A stretch of DNA of 40,097 bases from NCBI GenBank assembly GCA_018062285.1, contig JAGOSO010000006.1, forward strand, positions 1 through 40,097, in the 5' to 3' direction. Shown piece after piece: positions 784-40,097 of the stretch. A program made the position numbers and the translations under genes. Each line of letters opens with the position of its first letter. Position 1 is the stretch's first letter. The DNA is from Minisyncoccota bacterium (lineage in GTDB: Bacteria > Patescibacteriota > Minisyncoccia > 2-02-FULL-40-12 > GWA2-44-9). A model generated the notes under the pieces. It was not told the DNA's origin. It saw nothing but the letters and a program-made list of their open reading frames with translations, and did not search any database.

Positions 784-812
784 TTGACACATTGGTTGGG
801 GTTTGGTATTCT
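784..812 (+). promoter_or_regulatory. sigma70-type promoter for secE-nusG-rplK
   Basis: TTGACA (784-789), 17-nt spacer, TATTCT (807-812) preceded by TG (extended -10). Confidence 0.75.
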
Positions 813-863: not shown

Positions 864-1049
864 ATGAGTAAAATCATGCAATTTTTTAGGGAAGTTCGAG
901 TCGAGATGACTAAGGTTGTTTGGCCAACTGGTCGACAGCTCGTTATTTATACTCTCGTCGTAATCCTCTTAAGTGTTTTATTAGCTGTTTTTCTTGGTGT
1001 TTTAGACTTAGGTTTCCAAACTGTATTAACTAAGTACATTCTTAAATAA
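864..1049 (+). CDS. secE: Preprotein translocase subunit SecE
   Basis: FFREVRVEMTKVVWP motif plus one TM helix; directly upstream of nusG. Confidence 0.95.
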   Translation: MSKIMQFFREVRVEMTKVVWPTGRQLVIYTLVVILLSVLLAVFLGVLDLGFQTVLTKYILK

Positions 1050-1050
1050 A

Positions 1051-1596
1051 ATGCCAAAACAAGTTGAAACAGGTGAGCGCAGTTGGTTCGCTATCCATAC
1101 CTATGCAGGATATGAAGATAACGTTGCCAGAAATTTAAAACAGCGTATTGAATCGCTTGGTTTTGAGAACAAGATTTTTAATGTTCTGGTTCCTAAAGAA
1201 AAGAAGATAAAGATTAAATCAGGCAAGCGTGAAACCATTGAAGAAAAGATTTATCCGGGCTATGTTTTGGTGGAAATGATCGTTGACGATGCATCTTGGT
1301 ACGTTGTTCGCAATACCCCAAATGTTACTGGTTTTATTGGTGCCGGAACTGTCCCAACACCTTTAGCCCCAGGAGAAGTTGAAGCTTTGCTTAAGCGTAT
1401 GGGTGTTGATGAGCCAAAATATAAGATTGATGTCGCTGTTGGTGATCGAGTCAAAATTACCGACGGTCCTTTCAAGGATTTTGATGGTAAGATTGCTGAG
1501 ATTGACCCAGAGAAAGGACGTATCAAGGTATTGGTTACAATATTCGGGCGCGAAACGCCGGTAGAGTTGGACTTCCTTCAGATTAAAAAACTTTAA
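1051..1596 (+). CDS. nusG: Transcription termination/antitermination factor NusG
   Basis: NGN domain (WFAIHTYAGYE, IYPGYVLVEM, VRNTPNVTGF) and KOW domain (VKITDGPF, IFGRETPVEL). Confidence 0.97.
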   Translation: MPKQVETGERSWFAIHTYAGYEDNVARNLKQRIESLGFENKIFNVLVPKEKKIKIKSGKRETIEEKIYPGYVLVEMIVDDASWYVVRNTPNVTGFIGAGTVPTPLAPGEVEALLKRMGVDEPKYKIDVAVGDRVKITDGPFKDFDGKIAEIDPEKGRIKVLVTIFGRETPVELDFLQIKKL

Positions 1597-1643: not shown

Positions 1644-2063
1644 ATGGCAAAGAAAGTAAAAACAATAGTAAAATTACAGGTTATTGCAGGCAAATTAGAA
1701 CCATCAAAGATCGGTCAGGCTTTAGGGCCTCACGGTTTGAATCTTCAGCAGTTCATGGCCCAGGTTAACGAAGCCGCCAAAGACAAAGAAGGACAACAGA
1801 TTCCAGTTGAAATTACTATCTATGACGATCGTACTTTCACCTTTATCTTAAAGACTCCGCCAGCTGCTTACTTGTTGCGCAGTGCTGCGGGAATCGAAAA
1901 AGGCTCTGGTGTTCCTAATAAAACCAAGGTTGGCAGTGTGACCAAGGCTCAAGTTTTGAAGATCGCTGAACAGAAGATGGGCGACTTGAATGCTAACGAT
2001 GTCGAAGCTGCCGCTAAGATTATTGGTGGCACCGCTCGCTCAATGGGCATCGAAGTTAAATAA
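1644..2063 (+). CDS. rplK: 50S ribosomal protein L11 (uL11), divergent N-terminal domain
   Basis: [16 protein letters not shown] and [10 protein letters not shown] are conserved; follows nusG. Confidence 0.96.
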
Positions 2064-2070
2064 GAATTCT

Positions 2071-2111
2071 AAATAACAAAACCTCCGCGACTCGCGGAGG
2101 TTTTGTTATTT
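2071..2111. terminator. Bidirectional intrinsic terminator after rplK
   Basis: Perfect 20-nt inverted repeat aaataacaaaacctccgcga-c-tcgcggaggttttgttattt. Confidence 0.88.
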
Positions 2112-2155
2112 ATGGTTAATTTGATAAAGTGTCTAAAGTTCTTACAAGGAGCGTT

Positions 2156-5296: not shown

Positions 5297-5854
5297 GTGT
5301 ATAAGAAGATTAGAAAGGTTGGGATTGCTCTTTTGGCCGTTAGTTTATTGGTCGGGAACACCGATATTGGCACGGCCTTTATCGTAATGTTCTTGCCTAA
5401 AGACATTTCTTTGTGGGCCCTTCTAGTCATTATCATTGTTTCGGCCAACATCCAGGCAGCTATCTGCTATAAGCTTGGCCACGACCTTGTTTCGGTGTTG
5501 GGTAGGCTGTATGGGTCTGTTTTCGAGATCCCTTATTCCGTCAGGTTCAACTGGTTGTCTCATGGTTTCAAGCGGGCTATTCTTTCGACCCTCTTTTTGT
5601 TCCATGACTGGGAAGCAACCAAGCACAGTTTTGAAAGAGTGGTCAGGTCTATTTCTGGAAGCAAGAGGTTGATGTTCGGGGCATTTTTTACCTGGCTTCT
5701 CGCTCCAGGGAGTCGCTCAATAACAGCTATCGTTCTTGGTATGTCTGAAAGATTTGGATTGTTACTGGTCCTCACCACGCTGCATGTTGTTCTCGGTTTT
5801 ATTTTCTGGGGACTTGTTTACGAAGTTGCCTCTGGTGTGACCAGCCTTTTTTAA
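5297..5854 (+). CDS. Hypothetical multi-pass membrane protein, possibly highly diverged DedA/VTT-like
   Basis: 185 aa with several hydrophobic segments; GTG start 4 nt after AGGAGG; followed by a terminator. Confidence 0.7.
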   Translation: MYKKIRKVGIALLAVSLLVGNTDIGTAFIVMFLPKDISLWALLVIIIVSANIQAAICYKLGHDLVSVLGRLYGSVFEIPYSVRFNWLSHGFKRAILSTLFLFHDWEATKHSFERVVRSISGSKRLMFGAFFTWLLAPGSRSITAIVLGMSERFGLLLVLTTLHVVLGFIFWGLVYEVASGVTSLF

Positions 5855-14013: not shown

Positions 14014-14538
14014 ATGAATCAATCATTATTTTTGACTATAAATGGCTGGGCTGGTCACCGTGTTTGGCTAGATGCTTTGATGTATTTTTGTGCCGAGTAT
14101 TTAATGTATGTCATGATTTTGGCAGTGGTTGTTTATGTGATTATTGATTATAAACGCTGGCGCGATATGGCCATTGTTTCTGTTGGCTCAGCCCTAGTGG
14201 CCCGCTTTGTTGTGGCTTCCGGTATTAGAATGTTTTATTACCATGCCCGTCCTTATTGGGTCCTCGCCCAGACCCACATGCTGATTACTCCAGAGAAGAC
14301 TAGTTCTTTCCCTTCCGGTCACACAATTTTTGTTTTCTCTTTGGCCATGGCCGTTTATCAGTATAATAAAAAGGTTGGCAACTGGTTTTTTCTAGCCGCA
14401 ATCTTGGTTGGATTTTCTCGTATCTTTGCCGGTGCTCACTGGCCCTACGACATTGTTGCCGGTGCGGTCCTTGGCGTTTTGACTGCTATTGTTTGTGTTT
14501 GGGGATTTAAAAAATATGTAATCAAAGCCGTGAGATAA
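14014..14538 (+). CDS. PAP2 membrane phosphatase, likely undecaprenyl-diphosphatase (BcrC-like)
   Basis: RP, SFPSGH and SRIFAGAHWPYD motifs. Confidence 0.85.
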   Translation: MNQSLFLTINGWAGHRVWLDALMYFCAEYLMYVMILAVVVYVIIDYKRWRDMAIVSVGSALVARFVVASGIRMFYYHARPYWVLAQTHMLITPEKTSSFPSGHTIFVFSLAMAVYQYNKKVGNWFFLAAILVGFSRIFAGAHWPYDIVAGAVLGVLTAIVCVWGFKKYVIKAVR

Positions 14539-15428
14539 TGGTTAATTCAGAAAAACCATCACTGCCAGGTAATTCTCCAGAAGATGAGAAAAAACCAACT
14601 CGACAGCAAAGAGACATTTCTGATTTTAAAGAATTTGTTAGGTTGAATCTGGATACAGTCAAATATTCATTTAAGGCAGAGGATGATATCTATTGGAAAT
14701 TTTATTCGCATAGTGGGGATAGTCAGATAGACCCAAATTCGGATGAAGCGGTTTCTATTAAGAGTGATTACGCCAGGGATTTAAAAGTTGCGGCTGATAC
14801 TCTCGGTCCTTCTTCATCTGGTAAGGTAAATATTAAGGAAGATCATTATTGGTTCCATGTCATCACCAACAAAGGTTTTGATAGTCGCGAAATTGGCGGA
14901 AGGATTTACTTTAATGTGGACATAAGTGCCGCCCCAACTTTTATGGGCAACCTTGCTCTCGCTTTGGCCGCTAAAGGAGTTAATTGTCATATTAAGTTGC
15001 CTCAATCTTCTAAGGCCATAGAATGTGTCTCTAGGGCGGATAAAATCGTATTGTATTTTAACCAGAGCCAAGAGGCTGAGGTTTTGGCTGTTGTTGAAAA
15101 TGAACATAGTCTCTACTCGGATAAATTTACTGATGTTACACCAAGATTTACCAGTGTCCTCAAGGATTCAAACGGTGCATTAATGGAAGGTGTTGCTTTT
15201 GGGGAAGAGCGAAGTGGTTGGTCTTTCGGTGAACTTCGTAGCCGAGCTTTGGTCGGAGTTCTATTTAGCGCCAAAAGTAAAGGCTTAACAATTTTTGATT
15301 CTAGCTTCAATTTTGAGGAAGAATTGCGTGAATCTTTTGAGCATCTTGGTATTGACCCTCAGAATCCTAGCTTTAATAAAAGTGAGACGGATGAGTTTAA
15401 GCTTATAAAGCAAAGGATTGCTGATTAA
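14538..15428 (+). CDS. Hypothetical protein resembling the HopA1 effector / phosphothreonine-lyase-fold family
   Basis: Motif order GRIYFN, HIKL, RADKIVLYF, TPRFT, GVAFGEE, SFGELRSRAL, recognised by eye. Confidence 0.55.
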   Translation: MVNSEKPSLPGNSPEDEKKPTRQQRDISDFKEFVRLNLDTVKYSFKAEDDIYWKFYSHSGDSQIDPNSDEAVSIKSDYARDLKVAADTLGPSSSGKVNIKEDHYWFHVITNKGFDSREIGGRIYFNVDISAAPTFMGNLALALAAKGVNCHIKLPQSSKAIECVSRADKIVLYFNQSQEAEVLAVVENEHSLYSDKFTDVTPRFTSVLKDSNGALMEGVAFGEERSGWSFGELRSRALVGVLFSAKSKGLTIFDSSFNFEEELRESFEHLGIDPQNPSFNKSETDEFKLIKQRIAD

Positions 15429-27382: not shown

Positions 27383-27420
27383 TGATTGGTAAAACTCATA
27401 TTTTTGTGTTATAATGGTTG

Positions 27421-27801
27421 GAGTATGTAGACAATCGCTTCTGTGCTTTCGGGTGCAGGGGAGGAAAGTCCGGGCACTATCTTGTCTCGCAAGAGACAGA
27501 TAAAACGGTAGTGGGTAATCCCCATCTACAGTAATGTAAGAGGTGCGAACAGAGACGTCTTGGTTCGAAAGGACCAGAGAGCTAAACCCAGATCATTGAT
27601 TTATCAAAGATCATAGCTTAGTTCCAATCGGGGATACAAGATTGGAGGTGAAACGGCCAAATCCTTACTGGAGTGCAAGATCAAATTCCGATTTATCGGA
27701 ATAAAAGTAGATCGCTTGAGTCTGGCAGTAATGCCAAGACCAGATAAATGGTTGTCCGGTCGTCGCAAGACGACTATACAGAACCCGGCTTATCGCATGC
27801 T
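27421..27801 (+). ncRNA. rnpB: RNase P RNA
   Basis: GAGGAAAGTCCGGGC (27461-27475) and ACAGAACCCGGCTTA form P4; P1, P2, P5 and P7 pairings can be traced; TGtTATAAT lies upstream. Confidence 0.95.
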
Positions 27802-27836
27802 AAATCAAACTCCCGCTTCGGCGGGAGTTTGATTTA
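27801..27836. terminator. Terminator after rnpB
   Basis: Perfect 16-bp stem with TTCG loop. Confidence 0.88.
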
Positions 27837-35551: not shown

Positions 35552-36013
35552 ATGAGCCCAGAAAGAAACTTATTTGATGACCCAGAGCCAGTAACCACAA
35601 CGGATCACAATCCTGATCCAGACGTTTGGCGTCATCACCCAGCGATGCCAACTCGGCCTGATGTTTTACCAAAATCTTCTAGAGGGACCCACTCCAATCC
35701 TGGGGTCGTGGCAGAAGAATTGCCTGAGCGTGGGGATAGACCAGAAGAAATCCCCAAACCTGACAGTCTAAATACTGGTTGGGTAGAAAATTTCCCAGAG
35801 TTGTTCGATTTGAATACTGGTCATTTGATTTATGGAATTATTGAGGCGTATGCTGATTATCAGAAATCAAAAATCTCTGACGACCAAAAAGGAATCGATG
35901 CCTTCCATAAGTTTGTCCAAGAATATTTGGGTGGCGGCAGAATTGGTTCTGTGGTCCATCATTTCTTGAAATGTAAACATTGTAGAGACCTTCGTGATGG
36001 AAAAACGCCTTAA
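35552..36013 (+). CDS. Hypothetical protein with C-terminal HxxxCxxC
   Basis: 153-aa ORF behind TGgTATAAT (35529-35537); Pro/acidic N-terminus. Confidence 0.65.
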   Translation: MSPERNLFDDPEPVTTTDHNPDPDVWRHHPAMPTRPDVLPKSSRGTHSNPGVVAEELPERGDRPEEIPKPDSLNTGWVENFPELFDLNTGHLIYGIIEAYADYQKSKISDDQKGIDAFHKFVQEYLGGGRIGSVVHHFLKCKHCRDLRDGKTP

Positions 36014-39613: not shown

Positions 39614-39645
39614 ATTACTAAAAAATAGAGGACAAATGAGTTGAT

Positions 39646-39700
39646 CCCGCATATAACAAACAACGACCACTTTCGTGGTCCTGGTTTTGCTATATGCGGG
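39646..39700. repeat. Long imperfect inverted repeat or hairpin
   Basis: cccgcatata/tatatgcggg outer stem and gaccac-tttc-gtggtc inner stem. Confidence 0.7.
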
Positions 39701-39735
39701 GTTGAAAAATCGTCTTAAGGCGGTATAATAAAAAG

Positions 39736-40097
39736 GTGTTAGAATACGAGAATAATAAGGCTCTTTTATATATCTATTCTGGGGCCGGTGGCGTAGATGC
39801 TCAAGATTGGGCGTCGATGCTGCTTACAATGTATCGCAAATACTCGGCCAATCAAGGCTGGGGTTTTTCTGTTTTGAGTCAGACTTTTGGCGAGAAGGAT
39901 GGCACAAAGAATGCTGTCGCCGAAATTTCTGGTCCAAATTGTTATGAAAAGATTCGCCGCGAATCAGGAGTGCATCGGTTGGTCCGTATCTCTCCATATT
40001 CGTCAAAGGATTTGCGACACACTTCGTTTGCACTAGTTGAATTCGTGCCCGAAGTTATCGCTAAGCATTTCCAAATAAATGTTAACGATTTGAGGGT
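39736..40097 (+). CDS. prfB: Peptide chain release factor 2-like protein lacking domain 1 (3' end outside window)
   Basis: Hand translation from GTG 39736: MLEYENNKALLYIYSGAGGVDAQDWASML...ESGVHRLVRISPY..RHTSFA. Open to the window end; in-frame TGA at 39703-39705 upstream. Confidence 0.85.
   Translation, partial: MLEYENNKALLYIYSGAGGVDAQDWASMLLTMYRKYSANQGWGFSVLSQTFGEKDGTKNAVAEISGPNCYEKIRRESGVHRLVRISPYSSKDLRHTSFALVEFVPEVIAKHFQINVNDLR

Follow-up and report, generated by a model that had tools for sequence, protein, structure and literature searches.

A monophyletic subgroup of Yanofskybacteria-like Patescibacteria, ultra-small groundwater bacteria, carries a housekeeping ribosomal protein uL11 whose proline-rich N-terminal tip, on the best-supported reading of the available sequences, was rebuilt once. 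The gene was found in a stretch of 40,097 nucleotides from a Minisyncoccota bacterium (GenBank contig JAGOSO010000006.1), which is called the window below. The gene and its two relevant parts are placed as follows:

1644..2063, + strand: rplK, encoding uL11 (139 aa), with Pfam PF03946 and PF00298 and NCBIfam TIGR01632 matches, at the secE-nusG-rplK position
1695..1739, + strand: variant tip of the uL11 N-terminal domain, codons/residues 18-32, standing for A-T-P-A-P-P-V-G-T-A-L-G-P-H-G
1851..2057, + strand: intact C-terminal 23S rRNA-binding domain of uL11, residues 70-138, Pfam Ribosomal_L11

In its overall build the protein agrees with canonical bacterial uL11 (TIGR01632, PF03946 plus PF00298): it has the same two domains and a full-length rRNA-binding C-domain, and it is encoded in the same secE-nusG-rplK locus. 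The N-terminal domain PF03946 spans residues 9-65 with 71.5 bits and the C-terminal domain PF00298 residues 70-138 with 101.5 bits and the complete profile (1-69/69), both above the Pfam cut-offs, while the NCBIfam equivalog model for bacterial L11, TIGR01632, is matched with a score of 172.9 (cut-off 141.85). The C-domain of the AlphaFold2 model superposes on crystal L11 C-domains at 0.8-1.0 Å, and on 1mms_B, 1hc8_B and 1y39_B at 0.8-0.9 Å. Mean pLDDT of the model is 75 and falls below 50 at residues 22-29; the model therefore says nothing on the shape of the new tip.

Residues 18-32 elsewhere in bacteria read A-T/N-P-A-P-P-V-G-P/T-A-L-G-Q/P-H-G. Where canonical uL11 has the 3-10 helix PxPPVG, the window's protein reads P-S-K-I-G, which is one residue shorter and lacks both P21 and P22, the “PS22” switch prolines. 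In a HMMER alignment to the L11 chains of solved ribosomes, with which the protein shares 55-60% identity, the variant stands opposite AGQANPAPPVGPALGQHG with a one-residue gap, and alignment of the DNA with that of the nearest canonical relatives shows the deletion to be 3 nt long, clean and in frame. The sequence-only reading had claimed that L11 has lost its proline motif, is one residue shorter and without PP, and retains an intact rRNA-binding C-terminal domain; the former is borne out by the HMMER and DNA alignments, the latter by the full Pfam profile and the superposition. The PxPP[VI]G tip, from which the window's uL11 departs, is a conserved feature of the family and not a formal criterion for membership.

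The surroundings of rplK comprise the following features:

784..812, + strand: sigma-70-like promoter match upstream of secE, TTGACA-17-TATTCT, by consensus match
864..1049, + strand: secE (Pfam SecE, 3.3e-19)
1051..1596, + strand: nusG (Pfam NusG plus KOW)
2070..2112, + strand: terminator-like hairpin directly 3' of rplK, with a stem counted at 20 pairs, 8 of them G-C
2129-2824, + strand: tmk (thymidylate kinase, Pfam), the next ORF after rplK, in the place of rplA

The order secE-nusG-rplK is repeated on a 330-kb contig of a relative. The promoter match is weak evidence, with one found against 3.4 expected in shuffles. Downstream of rplK, the strong terminator hairpin in the gap 2064-2128 is followed by tmk and gatB and not, in contrast to the canonical arrangement, by rplA-rplJ-rplL. 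The loci L086-L142, L003-L007 and L010 have the same layout. An L1 gene (rplA) is absent from all 57 variant-L11 loci (L086-L142), and these neighbourhoods fit the L1-lacking Parcubacteria that have been reported (Brown 2015, as cited in bioRxiv 10.1101/2022.01.07.475337). We considered the loss of L1 as a cause of the L11 change and rejected it: rplA is adjacent to rplK neither in the window nor in many canonical-L11 Patescibacteria loci, and its absence therefore does not explain the change of motif.

Several functions have been assigned to the canonical tip. P21 and P22 constitute a proposed “proline switch 22” of translational GTPases, through which loop 62 and the contact with L12 are controlled (PMC3505967). 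Domain 1 of RF1 reaches the P-rich 3-10 helix of the N-terminal domain of L11 through its helices α2/α3 (PMC3677378), and RF domain 1 is not needed for peptide release but serves RF3 (PMC1586002). Thiopeptides bind in the cleft that the proline-rich helix of L11 forms with helices 43/44 of 23S rRNA (PMC2175356). Deletion of Pro22 from Bacillus subtilis L11 confers complete resistance to persiathiacin A at the price of poor growth, and L11 of the persiathiacin producer (Actinokineospora) carries P21V, P25K and Q29P (PMC11731312); yeast uL11, with Ala at positions 21 and 22, offers a smaller contact surface to the drug (PMC2175356). The literature (PMC3677378, PMC3505967, PMC2175356, PMC11731312) thus agrees with the sequence-only reading that this helix is a contact of RF domain 1, translational GTPases and thiopeptides. 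Its proposal of a remodelled GTPase centre claims more than the data allow, because a difference has been demonstrated only in the ~8-residue tip of one protein.

As a background for the variant we used the best 150 representatives of 50%-identity clusters, a set whose canonical representatives also stand for the members of the variant clade. PxPP[VILM]G is present in 127 of these 150 and PP is kept in four more; of the other 19, the majority are chimeric or have no N-terminus, and PP is absent from an intact motif region in only three (P0132, P0217 and P0253). Among the matches listed, 75 of 80 GTDB species loci have PxPP. The five others are L021, which keeps PP, L013, which lacks a single proline, L053 (BOKZ01000001.1, Patescibacteria bacterium BroJett034), whose uL11 reads PGQQIG, and L002 and L003, which have the variant and represent at least two variant species in the GTDB genome collection. 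Other uL11 proteins lack the PP pair independently, reading ATPGQQIGTALGPHG (L053), ANPSLIGKEMGPHG (P0217, also one residue shorter), ASPGSSLGPALGQHG (P0132) and ASASSVGTALGPHG (P0253).

The same comparison separates what is old in the window's motif from what is new. T25 occurs together with P29 in 22 of the 127 representatives and 17 of the 75 GTDB loci (among the matches listed), including the nearest canonical relatives listed, L004 (JACPNL01, 74% identity, a MAG with the label Yanofskybacteria), L005 (CAYRDM01, 69%) and L006 (CAZCYM01, 67%). The motif of L004 and L005 is PAPPVGTALGPHG, and L004 reads GGQATPAPPVGTALGPHG. Since the closest canonical relatives have this motif, the supposedly lost “GP” proline is the old and widespread T25/P29 state: the PP and GP prolines are both absent, as had been noted, but only the loss of PP belongs to this lineage. 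Judged against these relatives, the changes at P25 and Q29 are ancestral, and new are only PP→K (−1), T→Q and AT→LE, i.e. ATPAPPVGT→LEPSKIGQ.

The variant is fixed across a clade. All 120 of the nearest protein clusters (75-91% identity) carry it as LEP[SA]K[IV]GQALGP[HQ]G, with MEP in one, and a search of a metagenome collection with the back-translated motif pattern returned 57 stretches, every one of them inside an L11 gene (57/57; identity to the window's gene 71-89%). MGJA01, JBBTXT01 and JAXOUH01 are among the genomes with the variant. The names given to the best matches, for L11 as for RF2, are Candidatus Yanofskybacteria, Paceibacterota or Parcubacteria. In a neighbour-joining tree from which alignment columns 15-32 had been masked, 96 variants form one clade with zero canonical members inside, the sisters being canonical L004 and then L005; a single variant clade in a tree blind to the motif indicates a single origin. 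When the 14 motif codons are compared between the window, L002 and L003, many differ (10 of them between the window and L003), always synonymously and without a single amino-acid change, and 60 aligned clade sequences, 75-90% identical to the window's protein, all have E19, P20, K22, G24-P29 and G31. By these comparisons the new motif is under purifying selection, and the tip therefore appears to be a working alternative surface and not a product of decay. In the literature we found no described L11 or RF2 variant of Patescibacteria, and the papers found on the reduced ribosomes of these bacteria leave L11 unmentioned.

We favour, with a probability of roughly 0.55 for the proposal as a whole, a single rebuilding of the tip that was tolerated as the clients of the prolines matter little and that is now maintained. 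An ancestor with T25/P29 would have undergone, once, a 3-nt deletion and the substitutions that turned ATPAPPVGT into LEPSKIGQ. The change may have been tolerable if, as we assume, the clients that need the prolines, namely the docking of class-I RF domain 1 with its coupling to RF3 and the proposed P21-P22 cis/trans switch, are of little importance in slow-growing organisms with reduced genomes; the domain-1-less RF2 found throughout the clade fits this. The remaining clients (EF-G, EF-Tu, IF2, LepA and L7/L12) would now constrain the new sequence. Because the B. subtilis ΔPro22 strain grows poorly, the change of the tip may have been costly and not neutral. As a by-product, the packing surface that Pro21, Pro22 and Pro25 provide for thiostrepton-class thiopeptides would be lost, so that the ribosomes would probably be poorly sensitive to these drugs. 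Reduced thiopeptide binding or sensitivity of the variant ribosomes is plausible by analogy, as the window's uL11 differs from the drug-sensitive consensus at 21/22, 25 and 29, the positions altered in resistant mutants and in producer L11. Rfam finds no rRNA in the window or the clade loci that would show the 23S partners A1067 and A1095.

The second element of the proposal lies at the other end of the window, about 40 kb from rplK:

39641..39704, + strand: stable hairpin in the gap between a methyltransferase gene and prfB, -37.9 kcal/mol, z = -4.8, with 0/200 shuffles as good
39736..40097, + strand: 5' part of prfB, with a GTG start and an RF2 product that begins with domain 2; the full gene is L001:3623-4357, 244 aa

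That this RF2 lacks domain 1 had been stated from the letters alone and is corroborated by three results. The 244-aa protein from the overlapping contig L001 aligns to residues ~122-359 of solved RF2 chains; its NCBIfam prfB match covers profile positions 112-350 only, with 339 bits, below the cut-off of 370; and an in-frame stop lies 33 nt upstream of 39736. Coding sequence for domain 1 is absent in any frame between prfB and the upstream methyltransferase gene, and the programmed +1 frameshift near codon 26 of prfB was not found, the upstream reading frame being absent. The short form is not peculiar to the window: the best 120 RF2 homologues retrieved with the full 244-aa protein are all 236-275 aa long, and in four genomes stop codons just upstream of RF2 delimit stop-to-stop ORFs of 250-254 codons. 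The GGQ motif is present (SSGPGGQ), and the codon-recognition tripeptide is SPY instead of SPF, as in 21 of 120 relatives (SPF in 98). Absence of domain 1 is shared with PrfH (RF-H), a class-I RF homologue (PMC1586002). The window's RF2 differs from PrfH in scoring far higher with the prfB model than with the prfH model (339 against 111 bits, the latter below the prfH cut-off of 166.65), in keeping SP[FY] and GGQ, and in its neighbours, since it follows the methyltransferase gene and not one of the RtcB type, and precedes ftsE and ftsX. The hairpin at 39641-39704 falls within the 120-nt gap upstream of prfB and has no T-run behind it.

We also considered that the truncated RF2 might be inactive. 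This is ruled out by the stop codons of the clade: TGA ends 56 of 313 long ORFs (18%) in clade loci, compared with 26 of 167 (16%) in other Patescibacteria loci. As TGA is still in use as a stop across the clade, the shortened RF2 must be active. The window itself, with 38 called genes, has 25 TAA, 12 TAG and a single TGA stop, that of tmk (2822-2824), although the trinucleotide TGA is common in its sequence. Measured against the ~18% of the clade loci, one TGA in 38 makes the organism unusually TGA-poor (P≈0.005, binomial). Throughout the clade TAG stops outnumber TGA stops, an unusual situation among bacteria.

Variant L11 and short RF2 occur together outside the window as well. On contig JAXOUH010041808.1 a variant L11 (P0028) and a 246-aa RF2 (P0397) are ~42 kb apart in the gene order of the window, and matching longest-contig sizes (328851, 86389 and 161803) suggest that three more contigs are shared by the two. 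None of the fetched loci, which span at most ~10 kb on each side of the matched gene, has an RF gene beside L11. Matches to a 120-aa RF2 fragment fall into three classes of N-terminus, with none, with a stub of ~60 aa (the first “DFW” helix only) or with the full length; all these matches are 210 aa or shorter, mostly gene fragments from unassigned lineages. They hint that domain 1 was eroded stepwise, possibly in a wider group than the one with the L11 variant.

Altered uL11 tips are known from several other systems. The uL11 of Mycoplasma pneumoniae (PDB 7OOD chain h) reads GGQAKP----GPALASVG; like the window's it is a housekeeping protein of a bacterium with a reduced genome, and its ribosome works without PP, but it has a four-residue deletion, keeps P25 and belongs to an unrelated lineage. 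The B. subtilis ΔPro22 and producer P21V/P25K/Q29P proteins are changed at the same positions as the window's, including a one-residue deletion within PP; these resistant alleles, however, come from laboratory mutants that grow poorly or serve producer self-resistance, whereas the window's motif is the wild-type state, fixed throughout a clade that is not known to have any link to thiopeptides. L11 proteins of the TclQ/TclT type, from thiocillin and micrococcin clusters, likewise have a changed N-terminal tip. They differ in keeping PP and in being extra copies inside a biosynthetic cluster, while the window's gene occupies the housekeeping position; a TclQ-like paralogue in a thiopeptide cluster on a Staphylococcus hominis plasmid reads PAPPVGTVLGPAG, with PP kept and T25/P29. 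Yeast L12, the eukaryotic uL11, lacks Pro21 and Pro22 as the window's protein does (both are Ala) and binds thiostrepton poorly (PMC2175356), but belongs to another domain of life, with G at rRNA position 1067 and different factors.

These systems bear on the alternatives to a single, tolerated and now maintained rebuilding. As the sequence-only reading had suggested with its idea of co-evolution, the L11 tip and RF2 domain 1 could be two sides of one contact that were lost as a coupled event, given that both traits are clade-wide and both genes sit on JAXOUH010041808.1. Such strict co-evolution is possible but less likely than the favoured explanation, and we regard it as unlikely in its own right. 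The three classes of RF2 N-terminus look like stepwise erosion, possibly in more lineages than have the L11 variant. In M. pneumoniae, whose uL11 has lost PP, there is to our knowledge a full-length RF1 and no RF2 at all, and PP is also lost in BroJett034 (PGQQIG). Together with the occurrence of PrfH, which has no domain 1, in bacteria with ordinary L11 (PMC1586002), these losses argue against an obligatory link between L11 and RF2. Moreover, the published contact concerns RF1 (PMC3677378), and the dependence on L11 is reported to be strong for RF1 and inverse for RF2, according to a reviewer's remark citing Tate 1984 in PMC1586002. More far-reaching, and put forward here tentatively, would be termination without any L11-RF docking, in which the P-rich helix, domain 1 of RF2 (perhaps also of RF1) and the proline switch were discarded together, leaving a minimal GTPase-associated centre and ribosomes insensitive to the thiostrepton class.

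Alternatively, the motif might have been selected as thiopeptide resistance by producers of thiostrepton- or micrococcin-type compounds among neighbours or hosts. Positions 21/22, 25 and 29 are indeed altered as in resistant mutants and producer L11, and 25 and 29 as in the TclQ-like paralogue, but T25/P29 is ancestral and widespread, and a thiopeptide gene cluster is absent from the 40-kb window. We know of no thiopeptide production by methanogenic archaea. Methanogenic archaea are the partners reported for Yanofskybacteria (PMC9600506). Possible in principle, adaptive resistance is less likely than the tolerated rebuilding, and in our estimate rather improbable. Two further readings are effectively excluded. 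An accessory or immunity paralogue of the TclQ/TclT kind, suggested by L11 copies with changed N-terminal tips in thiopeptide clusters (PMC10704990), is very improbable for a gene that stands at the secE-nusG-rplK position in the window and in a relative and passes TIGR01632, with no YcaO, dehydratase or precursor peptide family found by Pfam in the 40-kb window. An error of sequencing or assembly, or decay of the gene, is hardly credible. Nothing speaks for it except that AlphaFold confidence is low at the motif, whereas the deletion is in frame, the motif codons compared vary only synonymously, and the motif recurs in 120 protein clusters that are independent of one another and in 57 contigs of many samples.

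Few protein features of bacterial ribosomes are as conserved as the proline tip of uL11, which is a proposed switch of translational GTPases, the dock of RF domain 1 and half of the thiopeptide pocket. A clade that combines a shorter, proline-poor tip, maintained by purifying selection, with a release factor without the docking domain is a natural test of how necessary those contacts are, and with the variant tip a sequence is already at hand for finding out which residues determine thiopeptide sensitivity.

Some further features of the window may be recorded. A Shine-Dalgarno-like tetramer lies within 20 nt upstream of the start in only 5 of 37 window genes. The ORFs at 5297-5854 (185 aa) and 35552-36013 (153 aa) are without a Pfam match. 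A bacterial RNase P RNA of class A at 27419-27808 scores 107.3 against an Rfam gathering threshold of 100, which suggests that it is divergent or reduced. Lastly, the 296-aa protein encoded at 14538-15428 has a clear Pfam match (E = 7e-16) to HopA1, a type III effector family of plant pathogens.
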